Source: an uncultured archaeon (lineage in GTDB: Archaea > Asgardarchaeota > Thorarchaeia > Thorarchaeales > Thorarchaeaceae). From it: DNA of 32,000 bases. The translations under genes were made by a program, and so were the position numbers. Shown here piece by piece: positions 1 through 6,959 of this stretch. The stretch lies in NCBI GenBank assembly GCA_964354495.1, contig CAYHAA010000001.1:155975-187974 (forward strand). The letters are read 5' to 3'. Numbering within the stretch: position 1 is the first letter of the stretch; every line of letters starts with the position of its first letter. Under the pieces are notes generated by a model that ran no database searches, had not been told where the DNA came from, and saw nothing but the letters and a program-made list of their open reading frames with translations.

Positions 1-1
1 C

Positions 2-229
2 GTAGATGCTGCAAAGAACTACTCTGAAGCAGAGATCTATGGTATTGCCAGAGAGGTACTTGATAGAGCAGAACAGAAGATGTGGGACATCCCAAAGGCG
101 ACGCGTCGAAGACTTAGACGCATGATTGACGATCTGCGCGATGCCTTGCCCGAGGAAGAAGAGATCCTAGATGATGATGATACAGCTGGGGACTTCGATC
201 CAGATCTGCTTGGCATCGAGGATGATTAG
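2..229 (+). CDS. 3' end of a hypothetical protein truncated by the window edge; helical, with an acidic C-terminal tail
   Basis: Frame 2 is open from base 2 to TAG at 227-229 and translates as VDAAKNYSEAEIYGIAREVLDRAEQKMWDIPKATRRRLRRMIDDLRDALPEEEEILDDDDTAGDFDPDLLGIEDD. It is absent from the ORF track because the start lies outside the window. Confidence 0.7.
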   Translation, partial: VDAAKNYSEAEIYGIAREVLDRAEQKMWDIPKATRRRLRRMIDDLRDALPEEEEILDDDDTAGDFDPDLLGIEDD

Positions 230-333
230 TGACTGCGCGGAGCAATATTCTCTGAATTGTCTGGTTTCTCAACGGGAAAACTCTATTTGCATAGTTTCTC
301 TCATTCGTGTATCTTCCTATGGAGTAGACACTA

Positions 334-3300
334 TTGACACACTTGCGAATGAAGATACTGACTTCCATCGTATTGGCTCTGCTGCTCTGGTCCATGGTCA
401 CCGCAGTCATCCCAAGTTCTCTAGGAACTGATTCTAGCTTCAAGCATTTCTCAACTAGCGCAAACGGGAATCAGATTCCTCTGAGAAGAGTCGCTCTTGT
501 TGCTCCAAACGCATCCTCCTACATTGACGAGTTCGCCTATTTCTCATCTATTCCAATGTCTGTGTTCAGTGAGAATGCCACTCAGTACATCTCGCCCCTC
601 ATCTATTCATCCGGTTCAGAGAGTGAAGAATGGTTTCTAGAGGATTGGATAGACTACCTCAGTGTAGATGGTGGACTTGTTCAAGCGACTGCCATAGGGA
701 GTTTCTCAGAATCATATCTTACAGAGCTACAATACGAGATTGGCACTAGAATCTATCCTCGAATCGCTGGAGCAAGTTCAGCAGAGATTGCGGCGAGAAT
801 TGCAGTTTCAGAATGGCGTACTTCTGGGGCTGTCGTGCTCTCTCTTGCAAGAGATAGCTTTCAGGCAGGTGCGATTATCTCTGGAAATGGCAGTCATACT
901 TTTCTGAATGATGCGACAGAAACAGACACTTTTGGAGGGACTGTCATGGGTGTGACCGTGCCTTCCAGCATATCATTCCAGCCACCCACCTGGGCCGGTT
1001 GGCTTGAGGGCAGCTTCAACTGGACCGGCAATGAAATCATCACCCATGAGCTCGTCGACCCCACTGGTGAGATTGTCGATTATTCTGTATACACCCAAGT
1101 CTATTTCTCGAGACATCCTGCCTATGTAGAGAACGCAGTACCGCTGCATTTCTGGCTTCCGAAGACCACTGACGGTACGTGGACTATGAATCTCACGAGA
1201 GATACTCTAGGTTCCACGACTATGAGCTGCAGTGTTCTCTATCATCCGGGATTCACCGAGACGGTTTCTGTCCCCGCGAACTCCAAATGGTTGAACGTGT
1301 CATTGAACTGGGATAATGTCGCCACCGACCTCAATCTTGCGCTGATTGACCCGAATGGTCGTCTGGTTATGTGGGCTCCTGCAGGCAGCATTCTGGCCAA
1401 TCCTGGCAGGGAATCCATCCAGCTTCCATACCCAATGGAGGGTGATTGGATCATCATAGCCTCATGGATAGATGCCACGAATGAGGAGAACAACATCGGG
1501 ATCTCATGGAGGATATCGCAACTTCCAGCAGATATTCATCACTATCTTGAATCGGCATCAAACGCCGCAGTCCTTGCATCACTACTAAACGTACCTCTCC
1601 TGTATGTTGAACCTAACCAAATACCTGAAGTCACACAATGGGCGCTCGACCGACTTGGAGTAACCGAGGTTTGGCTTGTGGACAGTGGAGATCTGCAACA
1701 GACCGGGCTTGTCACTGACCTGACTAGCTTGTACACTCTTCAGAATCTTAATAGCTATGGTACAATGACCGGGAATATCACTGTGCTGTCAGGAAGTCCT
1801 GATGTCGTAGTCACTGTACCTACTGGTGATAGTAACGAGTTCTTTGGACCGGCAGCATACTCTGCGGCGGTCCACGGATCTCCGATATTCTCCCTGTGCG
1901 GCGATGACAACCAGATGACGACTCGTGCACAGGAAACTTGGGCTCCCTACCTCGTCGGTCCTGAGATCAACAATATCTATGTCATAAACAAGTATGAGAA
2001 CCGTGCTGAGAACGGATGGTATGATGAGCGGATTCCGAACAAATACTCAATGATGGAATCTGTGAATGACTTTGAGAGCTTTCTTGCCGCCCGAGGGGCA
2101 TACAACGCGACAGCGGTTCAGCCATGTGTCATCGTTGCACCAATGTCCCTTCTACCCTCGAGTTTCGATCGTTCGCTTCAATCAGCCTTCAATCCAGGGA
2201 GGATCCCAGCTGAGGACCCCTCAACTGCATCGATTCTCATCAACCGAGGTCTACTGCATAGGTATCTCTTCCTCATAGCAGACTCTGCGGGTACTGCTCT
2301 CACAAGCATGTATGCGTATACAGACGGAGCACAATTCGTTGACAATAGCCTACACTACTCCGTGCTATATCAAATAGAAAACAGTACGGATGCCCTCGAA
2401 TCGGTTGGCTTCGAGATCGAGAGTCATGTTGGCGCGACTGAAACCTTCAATGGACTGAACTCTCAGGTAGCATTCTGGTCCCTGAGCACACACGGGACAC
2501 TGACAGTTCTACCCAGAGACCCCCCCGACCGACCGTACGGCCAAGGCTACATATCCATGAGATCGACAGACAGCCCATACGGTTTTGAAGAGAGTCTAGT
2601 CGTTCGAGAGAGTCCGGCGGATTCAGACAAATTAGTCAATCCGGTTTCCTTCTCTGCAGAATCCTCGAATCACATCATACGGTCTACGGATGAGCTAGAT
2701 GCTTCCATCGGCAATATTGGTTCGCCCATTGTCATTCTGACAGCATGTCTTCTTGGCGGTACTGACATGCCTCTTGTACTCATGCAGCATGGAGCAGTCG
2801 CTGTCACTGCATCTCCAAGAACCGTCTATTTCCAGCCAGCCGGGATGTTAGCAGTACTTGTCACTCAATCTCTCTGTGAGGGTAACGCAATTGGAGAATC
2901 TCTCTCCGCTGGTCTTTCCCTCACCTCATCCGACTATGCTAATCCATTGGTTGGTAGAGATCCTCGTGACTATGCCAACCAGCAGATTCTGTTTGGAGAC
3001 CCATCCATTCGTCTCTACGAACCAAGCACCTCATTGCATGTCCAGGCTCTGGATTCAGCGTCTGAGGTCTTTGGCAATCATGTGCCGGGTCGTGGTGTAT
3101 CATCTGTTGCAGTCCTTGGCGCTTCTTCATATCTGCCAGACGCGCTCGCTCCTTTGACAGTTGATTTTGATTACTACGAGTCCTCGAATTTCTCTGATTT
3201 TGTATCCCTCCTCCCACTTCGATACACTGTCATAGTGGAACCAGAGACTCTCTCTCTCTTCTTTGAAGAAGACTTCGCATCGCACTCATCTGAGATTATT

Positions 3301-4161
3301 TCCTACATTCGTGCTGGGGGCGTTCTGGGCATACTTGGGATAGCCGGTTCTCTTGATTGGGCTCCATGGCCAATCACATTCGGCAATACGACAGATGTTG
3401 AACCGATATCCTATATTGAAGAATCCCACCCTCTGCTTACTATTCCCAATCTGATAAACACAACAAGCGATTATTACGGTTGTTTTGACTCAGGTTGGGG
3501 CAACTTCACAGTCCTTGCGGTGGCCGGCTCTAGCCCCGTCATTGTCGCAGGAACCTATGGGTCTGGAAAAGTCGTTTTGACTACCACAAGCCCGAATGGC
3601 ACGGCCAGAGACGACTTTGTGGAAAATGTTGTTAATTGGGGCTCAGCACCTTCGATACGACTCAGAGCAATCTTACTAAGCCAGTCTATCATCTGGGCAG
3701 GAGACCGTGTTGTCATCTTGATTAGATTGTCTGACTTGGAAGGCAATCCAATCGAGTCTTCCAATTTTCAGCTATGGCTGAATGAAACAGAACTGAGTGT
3801 TGTCGAGGGTGAAAATGGCTACTACAGTGTGACAGTGAACGAAATATGGACAGCGAACAATGTAGGTCTGTTCGATATGAGATTCTACGTAAGCAAGAGC
3901 GGATATGACACTCTCTCCTTGACCTACGAGAGGTATCTGCTGATACGTCCGTTTCCATGGACTGTGATTGGTATTCTCGGTGGCACTGTTGCTGTGGTCA
4001 TCGGAGGCTGGATCTATCTCAAGCACAAAGGAGGCGACTCATTCTCACTCCACAAGGATGACAGTAGAGACTCTAGATCGAAGAAACAAGAGAAAGAAGA
4101 GGAAAAGAAGCGGAAGGAAGAGGATGGCAAATTCGATGCAAAAGAGTTCTTTGGCGTCTGA
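334..4161 (+). CDS. Large secreted, C-terminally membrane-anchored multidomain protein: CW_binding_2-like repeats, PPC-like beta-sandwiches, peptidase C25 (gingipain, clan CD) domain, GATase1-like domain, Ig-like domain, TM helix and charged cytoplasmic tail
   Basis: Signal peptide MKILTSIVLALLLWSMVTA (ATG 349 is the alternative start to TTG 334). CWB2-like segments RIAGASSAEIAARIA and AAVLASLLNVPLLYVEPNQIPEVTQWALDRLGVTEVWLV. PPC-like DLNLALIDPNG. C25 motifs GRIPA, THG, TAC, GAVAVTAS and LFGDP. TM WTVIGILGGTVAVVIGGWIYL. About 15 N-x-S/T sequons. Confidence 0.8.
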   Translation: MTHLRMKILTSIVLALLLWSMVTAVIPSSLGTDSSFKHFSTSANGNQIPLRRVALVAPNASSYIDEFAYFSSIPMSVFSENATQYISPLIYSSGSESEEWFLEDWIDYLSVDGGLVQATAIGSFSESYLTELQYEIGTRIYPRIAGASSAEIAARIAVSEWRTSGAVVLSLARDSFQAGAIISGNGSHTFLNDATETDTFGGTVMGVTVPSSISFQPPTWAGWLEGSFNWTGNEIITHELVDPTGEIVDYSVYTQVYFSRHPAYVENAVPLHFWLPKTTDGTWTMNLTRDTLGSTTMSCSVLYHPGFTETVSVPANSKWLNVSLNWDNVATDLNLALIDPNGRLVMWAPAGSILANPGRESIQLPYPMEGDWIIIASWIDATNEENNIGISWRISQLPADIHHYLESASNAAVLASLLNVPLLYVEPNQIPEVTQWALDRLGVTEVWLVDSGDLQQTGLVTDLTSLYTLQNLNSYGTMTGNITVLSGSPDVVVTVPTGDSNEFFGPAAYSAAVHGSPIFSLCGDDNQMTTRAQETWAPYLVGPEINNIYVINKYENRAENGWYDERIPNKYSMMESVNDFESFLAARGAYNATAVQPCVIVAPMSLLPSSFDRSLQSAFNPGRIPAEDPSTASILINRGLLHRYLFLIADSAGTALTSMYAYTDGAQFVDNSLHYSVLYQIENSTDALESVGFEIESHVGATETFNGLNSQVAFWSLSTHGTLTVLPRDPPDRPYGQGYISMRSTDSPYGFEESLVVRESPADSDKLVNPVSFSAESSNHIIRSTDELDASIGNIGSPIVILTACLLGGTDMPLVLMQHGAVAVTASPRTVYFQPAGMLAVLVTQSLCEGNAIGESLSAGLSLTSSDYANPLVGRDPRDYANQQILFGDPSIRLYEPSTSLHVQALDSASEVFGNHVPGRGVSSVAVLGASSYLPDALAPLTVDFDYYESSNFSDFVSLLPLRYTVIVEPETLSLFFEEDFASHSSEIISYIRAGGVLGILGIAGSLDWAPWPITFGNTTDVEPISYIEESHPLLTIPNLINTTSDYYGCFDSGWGNFTVLAVAGSSPVIVAGTYGSGKVVLTTTSPNGTARDDFVENVVNWGSAPSIRLRAILLSQSIIWAGDRVVILIRLSDLEGNPIESSNFQLWLNETELSVVEGENGYYSVTVNEIWTANNVGLFDMRFYVSKSGYDTLSLTYERYLLIRPFPWTVIGILGGTVAVVIGGWIYLKHKGGDSFSLHKDDSRDSRSKKQEKEEEKKRKEEDGKFDAKEFFGV

Positions 4162-4207
4162 TTCGTGCTTTCAATCAGAATGCACATTTGCCGTGCCTGC
4201 AATAAGG

Positions 4208-4215
4208 TTTTATAT
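4208..4215 (+). promoter_or_regulatory. Putative TATA box for the roadblock gene
   Basis: TTTTATAT preceded by purine-rich AATAAGG, about 47 nt upstream of ATG 4262. Confidence 0.5.
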
Positions 4216-4261
4216 GTACTGCACAGACTAGCCTTTGTTCGGATTGGCAGAGGGTTCTACC

Positions 4262-4624
4262 ATGTCCACTCGCGTTGACAGTATCAATAAAATCATCCGT
4301 GATTTTGAAACGGTCCCTGGTGTAGAGGGCGCCGCACTTGTGTCGCCTGACGGTCTCATGATTGCATCTGCCTTGCCCGAAAGCGAACAGGAAAATGTTG
4401 CCGCAATAAGCGCAGCGATTACATCTCTAGGAGAGAAGGCCACGGTAGAGCTAGACCGGGGAAGTCTCATGGAAATCTACGTAAAAGGTTCCAAAGGTTA
4501 TACACTCATTACGTCTGTTGGAGACCGTGCAGTGTTCCTTGTCCTAGCAAAGGTCGATGCTCAACTGGGACTCATATTCATGGATATGAAACGGATGGCT
4601 GAAGCATTGCTCGAGATTCTCTGA
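4262..4624 (+). CDS. Roadblock/LC7 (MglB/LAMTOR2-like) domain protein, 120 aa
   Basis: PGVEGAALVSPDGLMIASAL ... VAAISAAITSLGEKATVELDRG ... KGSKGYTLITSVGDRAVFLVLAK ... QLGLIFMDMKR is a typical prokaryotic/Asgard roadblock pattern. ATG 4262 is preferred over the TTG at 4235. Confidence 0.92.
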   Translation: MSTRVDSINKIIRDFETVPGVEGAALVSPDGLMIASALPESEQENVAAISAAITSLGEKATVELDRGSLMEIYVKGSKGYTLITSVGDRAVFLVLAKVDAQLGLIFMDMKRMAEALLEIL

Positions 4625-5908: not shown

Positions 5909-6143
5909 CCTTTACGAGGATAAGTGGTCGGATAAGACTTGTGGGTGACGTTTTGCTGACACTGGTATCGCCTATATTTCCGTGATTTTGTGCAAGTATA
6001 CACAGGTGGGCAAAGAATATATGAGGCAAATAGGATGAGCGGGAGTAACGGTGGCGGCTTTTTCAGTGGATTTGCCGTCAATGAATGTGCGTATGAAGTA
6101 ATCTTCGGTAGGTGCGGAACACTTGGCAGGCTCTTCTCGCAAC

Positions 6144-6959
6144 ATGGATGAACTCATGAGGGGATTTCAGACCGAGAAGAAGACAAGGTTCCAGTCGTAT
6201 GAGAAGGTTGTTTCTGCTCTGGGCACTCCTACCCAATCGCTCTTTGTGACCGATAATGACAATGAGGTCGATACATTCCAACGCGACTTCAACGAGTTTC
6301 TTGTTTCGACAGGAAGAATGAAAGAGGGTTCGACAGATCTACCGTATCACATGGTGCGAATAGGCTACGATGGCGACATGCTTGATGACATGTTCCGACT
6401 TGTGGTTTCCGATGAATCTGACAACTTCACACCTGCATCGCTTGATCCCAATTCACTCTATTCAAAACAGGCCATCTTTCAGCATCTCTACCAGGCCATT
6501 AGCAAAGACAAGTTCATCATTTTTCACATCACAGAGTTCCCACTTGCTTACTACTTTGAGACCGCCGTAGTAGTAGATGTTCAGGAGCTCTCAGATGTGA
6601 TGGATCCATCAGTTCATGACGAGACCATCGTACGGTACCTCAACGACCTTCGTGAGCAAGGGACAGAGGAACATAGAAAGACATACACCTTCTTTTACCG
6701 AATCAGTACGTCACTACTAATGGAGCTCTCCAATGTCTTCCTCGTGGTTCCTACCGCCGGAATGAACAGACATCTCGTGGTGACAAGCTGGCGCACACAG
6801 ACCCTCCTCCTTGGTTTCAGTCCCCTGACATGGTCCTCGGGCAGCTTCAATGTCTTTGATTTGAGCGGGCGTGATATCGATGCTCGCTGGGCATATCCTG
6901 CACCACCAACCGCAGACCCACGGGTGAAACAATACACAAGTCTAGTGCCCATGAAGTAG
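6144..6959 (+). CDS. Hypothetical protein (271 aa), soluble and acidic, inside the CoA cluster
   Basis: Long ORF filling the gap between coaBC and pantoate kinase, with an in-frame TAA at 6099. ATG 6144 is the first ATG (TTG 6123 is an alternative). No family motif recognised. Confidence 0.75.
   Translation: MDELMRGFQTEKKTRFQSYEKVVSALGTPTQSLFVTDNDNEVDTFQRDFNEFLVSTGRMKEGSTDLPYHMVRIGYDGDMLDDMFRLVVSDESDNFTPASLDPNSLYSKQAIFQHLYQAISKDKFIIFHITEFPLAYYFETAVVVDVQELSDVMDPSVHDETIVRYLNDLREQGTEEHRKTYTFFYRISTSLLMELSNVFLVVPTAGMNRHLVVTSWRTQTLLLGFSPLTWSSGSFNVFDLSGRDIDARWAYPAPPTADPRVKQYTSLVPMK

Follow-up and report, generated by a model that had tools for sequence, protein, structure and literature searches.

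The DNA analysed here, hereafter the window, is a stretch of 32,000 nucleotides from an uncultured archaeon of the Thorarchaeia (assembly GCA_964354495.1, contig CAYHAA010000001.1, positions 155,975 to 187,974 of the forward strand; source genome of 3.3 Mb, 97.7% complete), and its plus strand carries at 334..4161 a single long open reading frame (ORF) of 1275 codons for a predicted type-I membrane protein with a gingipain-type cysteine peptidase. We are highly confident that the N-terminal head of this protein (window 469-1968) belongs to the bacterial CWB2 (cell-wall-binding 2) superfamily as a true, though ancient and divergent, archaeal member, its second repeat being split by two inserted beta-sandwiches. 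The whole explanation put forward below, in which this identity is taken together with a role of the head in recognition or positioning, is considered reasonably probable.

Sequence evidence for a CWB2 module

The relationship to CWB2 is apparent when profiles of the family are used. An alignment of 28 sequences covering amino acids (aa) 40-600 (A1), compared with PDB sequences, had Clostridioides difficile Cwp6 as its best match (E 1.3e-4), followed by the jelly-roll domain of Tk-SP (E 0.002), and a second profile (A2), built from 28 orthologues for the uninterrupted C-terminal stretch of the module (aa 399-545), matched Cwp6 (5j72) with E 8.5e-7 and, more weakly, Cwp8 (E 0.096), in alignments that extend across repeats. 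An exhaustive hmmsearch of 1.84 billion representatives with A2 returned 1344 proteins at E<=1e-3, including 71 at E<=1e-10. Canonical CWB2 proteins were matched by the family profile at E 1e-9 to 1e-24, an autolysin-like protein with an Amidase_2 domain and six CWB2 repeats at E 1.5e-24, and the A2 matches tested that contain two to four matched stretches were PF04122 proteins in 33 of 33 cases (best E 1.8e-67), the named ones being 'cell wall-binding repeat-containing protein' of Actinomycetota and Firmicutes. Likewise, alignment by hhalign of the Thorarchaeal module, with the insertion excised, to a canonical triple-CWB2 profile gave Prob 98.2% and E 5.3e-14 over 178 columns, and a second alignment (E 3.7e-13, 232 columns) takes in repeat 1.

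Several observations weigh against this identification. An hmmscan against PF04122 (gathering score 24.9 bits), by which the first-pass annotation of the window had proposed to verify its CWB2 assignment, gave no significant match: nothing was obtained at E<=10 with the whole protein, with its pieces or with the six-frame translation of its own genome. Neither Pfam nor NCBIfam revealed CWB2 when the whole protein and five pieces of it were scanned, and a phmmer search of PDB sequences with the single protein gave no useful match. The profile of the N half (A3) retrieved nothing significant from PDB sequences, and the canonical set used in hhalign was chosen from matches of the C-half profile, which leaves the C half not fully independent. 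The N half, which had no part in that selection, still aligns to canonical repeats (hhalign alignments 2 and 3).

Predicted structure of the head

A model of the head (561 residues) was obtained with AlphaFold2 from A1, with a mean predicted local distance difference test score (pLDDT) of 82.3 and a predicted template modelling score (pTM) of 0.78. When it was compared with 48,161 PDB chains by VIA-align, which is independent of Foldseek, the first three ranks were taken by Cwp8 (Z 19.3, 246 aa, 3.5 Å), Cwp6 (Z 18.8, 259 aa) and SlpA-HMW (Z 16.8, 253 aa), with root-mean-square deviations (rmsd) of 3.5-4.5 Å across the three. The best match outside CWB2 was a beta-sandwich at Z 13.5, and no other alpha/beta fold appeared among the 50 matches listed, which reach down to Z 7.6. 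Because about 250 residues superpose together, the three repeats share the prism arrangement of the solved modules, which has been described as pseudo-threefold (PMC8881574); in the model, residues 49-178 and 399-545 of the protein form a single-chain pseudo-threefold prism of three CWB2-type repeats. The trimeric CWB2-like fold that the first-pass annotation had expected is therefore present in the prediction, and its proposal of three CWB2-type repeats is supported by the family profiles, by hhalign and by the matches of the model. A Foldseek search of the PDB with the whole 561-residue model had no CWB2 protein among the 50 matches listed, which were dominated by double jelly-roll and beta-sandwich proteins (PRD1 coat protein, SIDT) resembling the insert.

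The head shares with Cwp8, Cwp6 and SlpA-HMW (5j6q, 5j72 and 7acz, respectively) three tandem alpha/beta repeats in a pseudo-threefold prism, a strand motif resembling P[ILV][ILV]x in all three, an extracellular location and fusion to a functional domain, and differs from them in lying under the detection limit of Pfam and in having repeat 2 split by a double beta-sandwich. One could suppose that the likeness is due to chance or to a generic Rossmann-like similarity, or that the module was acquired recently from Firmicutes or Chloroflexi by horizontal transfer, and the silence of PF04122 on the protein and the genome, together with the absence of a significant PDB sequence match for the N half, would be in line with such a view. 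Nevertheless, we regard it as barely credible: Z values of 17-19 were reached with exactly the three solved CWB2 proteins, and the profile matches, the 33 of 33 PF04122 proteins and the hhalign E of 5e-14, together with the matches of the model, place the resemblance far beyond chance.

Anatomy of the three repeats

Every segment quoted in the first-pass annotation is found in the ORF where it had been placed. Repeat 1 (478..708, aa 49-125), delimited by the model, the structural match and hhalign, opens with PLRRVALVAP (aa 49-58), after which come YIDEFAYFSSIP, SPLIY (aa 87-91), EDWIDYL and ATAIG in that order, SPLIY being its equivalent of the PILL motif. The first half of repeat 2 (709..867, aa 126-178), assigned from hhalign and from comparison with the metagenomic homologue P0141 described below, contains RIAGASSAEIAARIA (aa 143-157), the equivalent of the canonical RxxGxDRYxTA helix, and VVLSLARDSF (aa 167-176), the equivalent of the canonical 'vvlAxGxxF' strand, which stops at the insertion point. 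Its second half (1528..1728, aa 399-465), assigned from hhalign and from a sequence-level match whose best counterpart is residues 173-231 of Cwp6, carries AAVLASLLNVPLLYV (aa 411-425) and VTEVWLV (aa 443-449); the helix ESASNAAVLASLL corresponds to 'DALxaxxlA' and the strand VPLLYV to 'aPILL', followed by IPEVTQWALDRLGVTEVWLV. Repeat 3 (1729..1968, aa 466-545), supported by a profile alignment to Cwp8 over two repeats, by hhalign and by the model, comprises DVVVTVPTG (aa 490-498), AAYSAAVHGSPIF (aa 507-519) with PIFS as the PILL equivalent, and then the helix MTTRAQETW. The end of the module, at about aa 545 (window 1968), lies slightly beyond the position 1900 given in the first-pass annotation.

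PILL-like motifs accordingly stand at equivalent strands in repeats 1, 2 and 3 (SPLIY, VPLLY and SPIFS, respectively). Their proline shows no variation in repeats 1 (Pro88) and 2, and its conservation in repeat 3 is 90% or more; the final position is Tyr or Ser here, as opposed to Leu or Val in the canonical motif P[ILV][ILV][LV]. In C. difficile, anchoring needs the PILL motif and all three CWB2 repeats (PMC4973711).

Insertion of two beta-sandwiches into repeat 2

The insertion comprises 220 aa (aa 179-398), folded as two PPC/beta-jelly-roll sandwiches, and lies between the core strand of repeat 2 and the helix whose start is marked by FxDAL in canonical repeats. The first sandwich (868..1248, aa 179-305; motif ELVDPTG at aa 239-245) is all-beta in the model, in which residues 156-267 match the beta-sandwiches of CspA/CspB/CspC and furin (P domain), as well as GOLD domains, at Z 8-10 (VIA-align). 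The second (1249..1527, aa 306-398; motif ALIDPNG at aa 336-342) matches the C-terminal jelly roll of Tk-SP (3afg/9ues) at Z 13.5 over 98 aa, with 2.0 Å and 21% identity. Beta-sandwich matches as a whole cover model residues ~140-359 and include Tk-SP, KP-43, the collagen-binding PPC domains of ColG/ColH and GOLD domains; those of PPC type span Z 9.6-13.5, with ColG/PPC at about 10. Pfam PPC (PF04151) was detected in the second sandwich only (aa 310-374; 16.6-18.8 bits, E 0.003-0.015), under its cut-off of 25.9 bits, and 8 of 37 more distant relatives pass E 1e-3 for this family. Of the two PPC-like modules read by the first-pass annotation, the sandwich fold is therefore borne out, whereas the assignment to PF04151 stays below cut-off. 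Tk-SP (3afg), KP-43 and the ColG/ColH PPC domains share with the inserts the beta-sandwich fold, the 'L.L.L.DP.G' motif and the company of extracellular proteases, but in proteins of that type the domains are C-terminal appendages, whereas the Thorarchaeal pair is nested inside a CWB2 repeat.

The interruption of repeat 2, also claimed by the first-pass annotation, is corroborated by the model, by the profile and by P0141. This homologue of 951 aa has an uninterrupted archaeal-type CWB2 head followed by C25-like segments; its two halves are 29% and 35% identical to those of the window's protein and are linked by 9 residues. PF04122 aligns to it end to end over the junction (positions 2-73 of 73), at a sub-threshold 19 bits and E 0.002. 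This junction and the end-to-end CW_binding_2 alignment constitute an independent proof of the insertion in the window's protein. Both halves are present in 53 of the 149 best representatives, 42 of which also match the C25 profile, and the halves are ~200-370 aa apart in every inspected representative except P0141. In the alignment of 28 sequences the insert is rich in invariant Trp.

Distribution and ancestry

A word-indexed search with residues 30-620 returned 156 orthologue clusters, the best 120 of which are nearly all ~1250-1300 aa long, 48-92% identical and mostly labelled Thorarchaeota, several of these 120 carrying the name 'C25 family cysteine peptidase'. The module occurs as a single copy in its own genome and in 86 of 400 Asgard genomes, including 71 of the 85 genomes of the window's own family, in which it is nearly always single-copy and encoded in an ORF of ~1270-1330 aa; the 14 genomes of this family without it are 52-90% complete. 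Seven other Asgard families have the module with weaker scores, and in the largest family only 1 of 135 genomes has it. The named relatives of split type belong to Promethearchaeota, Odin- and Hel-archaea, 'Asgardarchaeia' and Thermoplasmata, none of them being bacterial, and are 20-30% identical to each other, while PF04122 scored above cut-off in 0 of the 400 Asgard genomes. In view of this split-type distribution and of the absence of PF04122-level matches, the split module joined to a C25 peptidase is an old archaeal architecture and not a recent Firmicutes import. The description 'Firmicutes-style' in the first-pass annotation is not supported, and the same counts speak against the import half of the explanation by chance or transfer.

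Mean pairwise identity amounts to 0.57-0.58 in the second half of repeat 2 and in repeat 3, 0.56 in the second sandwich and 0.60 in the C25 core. Conservation of the head near that of the catalytic core, along with the invariant Trp residues of the insert, argues for a specific role.

Some further observations were made in the course of this survey. In some genomes of the same family (G354:C20:41945-42325, G347:C182:24174-24578, G345:C142:4530-4913, G385:C34:19203-19580 and G336:C6:60441-60830) there is an additional version of the module, far more divergent (E 1e-11 to 1e-16) and encoded in ORFs of 1350-1940 aa, and one such second copy is the sole sub-threshold PF04122 match in the family. 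Sub-threshold matches to PF04122 in another Asgard family (f22) were rejected as surface CWB2 modules, being cytoplasmic P-loop/DRTGG proteins. Among 14 control genomes, PF04122 signals were seen in Methanocaldococcus jannaschii and Bacillus subtilis, only one of them over cut-off; the M. jannaschii signal may be another archaeal CWB2-like or DRTGG-like protein.

Protease, stalk and membrane anchor

The ORF opens with TTG at 334, but the ATG at 349 is the likelier start. From the sequence and the models, the predicted order along the chain is signal peptide, CWB2/PPC head, C25 protease, stalk, transmembrane helix and short cytoplasmic tail. A hydrophobic signal peptide-like segment, MKILTSIVLALLLWSMVTAVIPSSLG (349..426, aa 6-31), is read directly from the sequence at the N-terminus. 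The gingipain-type C25 cysteine peptidase follows the head at 1969..3045 (aa 546-904), being recognized by Pfam Peptidase_C25 (PF01364; aa 622-894, 25.9 bits, cut-off 23) and by structure: in a second model (aa 546-1240, pLDDT 75.5) this region matches RgpB (4ief_B) at Z 20.7 over 270 aa and Kgp at Z 18.4 (VIA-align). The catalytic His720 (STHG) and Cys805 (LTAC) are invariant in 28 orthologues, and the enzyme is apparently active, as judged from the intact dyad. A ThuA/GATase1-like alpha/beta domain comes next (3094..3648, aa 921-1105), with structural matches to 1t0b (Z 16.0) and to 2gk3 and 3rht (Z 15.5-15.8), and is followed by an Ig-like beta-sandwich (3658..3948, aa 1109-1205), all-beta in the second model and weakly matched by Pfam Ig_GEX2_N (E 0.012). 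The C-terminal transmembrane helix PWTVIGILGGTVAVVIGGWIYL (3955..4020, aa 1208-1229), a hydrophobic stretch modelled as a helix, leads to a Lys/Glu-rich cytoplasmic tail (4021..4158, aa 1230-1275), in which aa 1233-1275 contain 12 K+R and 13 D+E among 43 residues. Both the protease and the membrane anchor, which the first-pass annotation had placed on the same chain as the repeats, are thus present. A profile of the C-terminal part (A7) retrieved nothing significant from PDB sequences. Window 3094-4029 (aa 921-1232) also aligns to OST48/Wbp1-type subunits of the oligosaccharyltransferase of eukaryotes (6s7o_G, Z 13.4; 6c26_B, Z 12.2; rmsd 9-10 Å) and to the IFT52 GIFT domain (Z 12.7), although in the models these are loose structural alignments only, without sequence support.

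The protein shares with the gingipains RgpB and Kgp the C25 fold, the invariant His-Gly/Ala-Cys dyad and an extracellular location. It lacks the gingipain pro-domain, the haemagglutinin/adhesin domains and the C-terminal domain of the type IX secretion system, and has instead the N-terminal CWB2/PPC head and a C-terminal stalk with ThuA-like and Ig domains and a transmembrane helix. Gingipains have an inhibitory N-terminal pro-domain, the C25 region finds its best structural counterpart in the pro/mature complex of RgpB (4ief), and the head stands immediately N-terminal to the peptidase; the N-terminal 500 residues might on these grounds chaperone or inhibit the enzyme and be removed or displaced on activation. 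The motif RxENGWYDERIP at the head-C25 junction (aa 557-568, window 2002-2037) would also fit such a pro-region, since it is invariant in 28 orthologues, has a pLDDT below 50 in both half-models and may be an inter-domain interface that neither of them could form. The fold of the head is, however, a CWB2 prism with PPC sandwiches, a fold not known to occur in C25 pro-domains, no cleavage site is evident, and 11 of the 53 split-head relatives have no detectable C25 match, several of these sequences being possibly incomplete. A regulatory pro-region is consequently held to be highly improbable.

Gene neighbourhood

Upstream of the protease gene, in the same orientation, are genes for a small GTPase of the Ras-like type with 233 aa and a TPR protein with 295 aa, and a gene for a Roadblock/LC7 protein (129 aa) follows it. 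This block spans L014:8496-14599 of the window's own genome (G000:C1), its downstream part being covered by window 1-4624. In seven other genera sampled from the family, with proteases 44-50% identical, the four genes come in the same order (GTPase, TPR, protease, Roadblock). Roadblock is missing from the block in an eighth genus (L020) and in a genome from a second family, whose protease is 37% identical; GTPase, TPR and protease are present in both. The wider surroundings are of housekeeping character, with genes for archaeal coenzyme A (CoA) synthesis, aEF-2 and IleRS. Within the archaeal CoA cluster, an ORF of 278 aa without a Pfam family (window 6123-6959, plus strand) has coaBC on one side and the pantoate kinase-like, PPS and panE genes on the other.

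Chemistry and putative role of the head

The polymer to which CWB2 modules of C. difficile bind, PSII, is anionic (PMC4973711), and positive patches on the wall-facing base of SlpA are the proposed contact with it (PMC8881574). The Thorarchaeal head is strongly acidic, with a median net charge of -24 (range -31 to -16), as opposed to a median of -5 in 33 canonical modules. Its content of K+R is 2.9%, against 8.3% in the canonical modules, and a basic residue is kept in at least 70% of the orthologues at only 3 positions of the head. According to hhalign, repeat 2 has other residues in place of the second Arg and the Thr of the RxxGxDRYxT motif, and repeat 3 retains hardly anything of the motif, so that, unlike in the C. 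difficile modules, its arginines are mostly lost. In addition, the protein is anchored by a transmembrane helix in an organism without a known wall, and is encoded by one copy per genome, compared with 29 Cwp proteins in C. difficile. In those Asgards that have been cultured, proteins protrude from a single membrane and an ordered S-layer is lacking (PMC9834061, PMC11284389). Because of the acidity, the loss of the Arg motif, the protein's own transmembrane anchor and the lack of a known wall, PSII-like binding of an anionic polymer and classical wall anchoring by the head appear unlikely. The ligand of the head probably differs from PSII of C. difficile, and a C. difficile-like ligand finds no support in this composition.

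The head might still retain the bacterial function, docking the protease on the secondary wall polymers of bacterial partners or prey, as in one suggestion of the first-pass annotation, or on wall debris in the sediment, to attack or harvest wall protein, and the true homology to wall-binding CWB2, the retention of PILL-type motifs and the position of the module at the membrane-distal end of the chain speak for it. Moreover, archaea use bacterial wall-binding domains on secreted peptidoglycan hydrolases (PMC12352652), and extracellular C25 peptidases of sediment archaea, which belong to the same PF01364 family as the Thorarchaeal protease, are expressed and tied to protein scavenging (PMC6461988). 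Yet an acidic, Lys/Arg-poor head in which the Arg-rich motif is partly left, in repeat 2 only, fits PSII poorly, the catalytic domain is a protease and not a wall hydrolase, the protein remains tethered to the membrane, and a single-copy core gene whose synteny with genes for cytoplasmic GTPase, TPR and Roadblock proteins is maintained across genera is unlike an accessory weapon. Docking on bacterial walls is for these reasons distinctly unlikely, and the single-copy syntenic core gene fits an endogenous role at the cell surface better than an accessory tool for predation or scavenging. A model for such an endogenous surface-processing role is provided by Cwp84 of C. difficile, which matures the organism's own surface-layer precursor. 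Cwp84 and Cwp13 follow the same logic as the Thorarchaeal protein, a surface cysteine protease joined to a CWB2 triple module (published domain architecture; PMC4973711), although Cwp84 is a papain-family (C1A) enzyme held non-covalently at the wall by CWB2, whereas the Thorarchaeal enzyme belongs to clan CD (C25) and is anchored by its transmembrane helix.

We hypothesize that the CWB2 prism would no longer serve as a wall anchor, the protein having a transmembrane anchor of its own and the cell no known wall, and would instead form a rigid platform presenting the two beta-sandwiches. Prism and sandwiches together would then act as a non-catalytic recognition or positioning head, bringing a glycan or protein partner, either non-anionic or bridged by Ca, to the tethered protease. 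That the head binds is something we infer, as is the nature of its partner, and we advance this functional part of the explanation, whether the partner is non-anionic or cation-bridged, tentatively, as a possibility somewhat short of probable. Some points count against it. The charge was counted from the sequence, not mapped on the surface, so that a local basic patch is possible; the absence of a wall is extrapolated from Lokiarchaeia, no Thorarchaeon having been cultured; head and protease were modelled as separate pieces, and the models therefore do not give their mutual arrangement; and a purely structural role of the head fits the same data.

Such a structural role would make the head a tile without external ligand, that is, a rigid pedestal or a laterally self-associating unit that clusters or spaces the protease on a wall-less surface, similarly to the packing of SlpA-HMW. 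The lattice contacts of SlpA are in fact made by its CWB2 tiles (PMC8881574), the pTM of the head model suggests a fixed packing of the sandwiches on the prism, the loss of basic residues is readily accommodated, and the surface of cultured Asgards, with many protruding proteins and no S-layer (PMC9834061), is consistent with it. What makes this role unlikely in our view is that a head as conserved as the catalytic core, with many invariant Trp residues in the insert, exceeds the usual needs of a spacer, and that its own genome has one module gene, in comparison with the 29 Cwp proteins that share the layer of C. difficile. A more far-reaching version of the recognition hypothesis may also be considered, in which the acidic head would recognize a glycan or the surface of a partner cell and the cytoplasmic tail would be wired to the putatively co-transcribed GTPase, TPR and Roadblock/LC7 proteins, the whole being an outside-in device for contact sensing or surface remodelling derived from a repurposed wall anchor; we rate it as quite improbable. 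In a variant of the latter, argued by analogy, the C25 domain may work in the manner of the PorU sortase and join surface proteins to a glycan that the head would hold.

Significance

In the literature searched, CWB2 figures as a means by which Gram-positive bacteria anchor proteins to their wall (PMC4973711; bioRxiv 10.1101/2025.04.02.646754). The prism described here, homologous to CWB2, is a conserved single-copy surface part in Thorarchaeia and is also found in other Asgards and in Thermoplasmata, in organisms with no known wall. Since Pfam models are blind to the archaeal module, it escapes domain surveys that deal with archaeal surface proteins or with archaeal 'wall-binding' domains. 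The practical gain is modest pending identification of the ligand. The module offers a natural case of domain insertion into a CWB2 repeat, with P0141 as an uninterrupted relative for comparison, and the head is a concrete and expressible candidate component of the 'complex surface proteins' of Asgard archaea, as well as a test case for the repurposing of a wall anchor after loss of its wall ligand.

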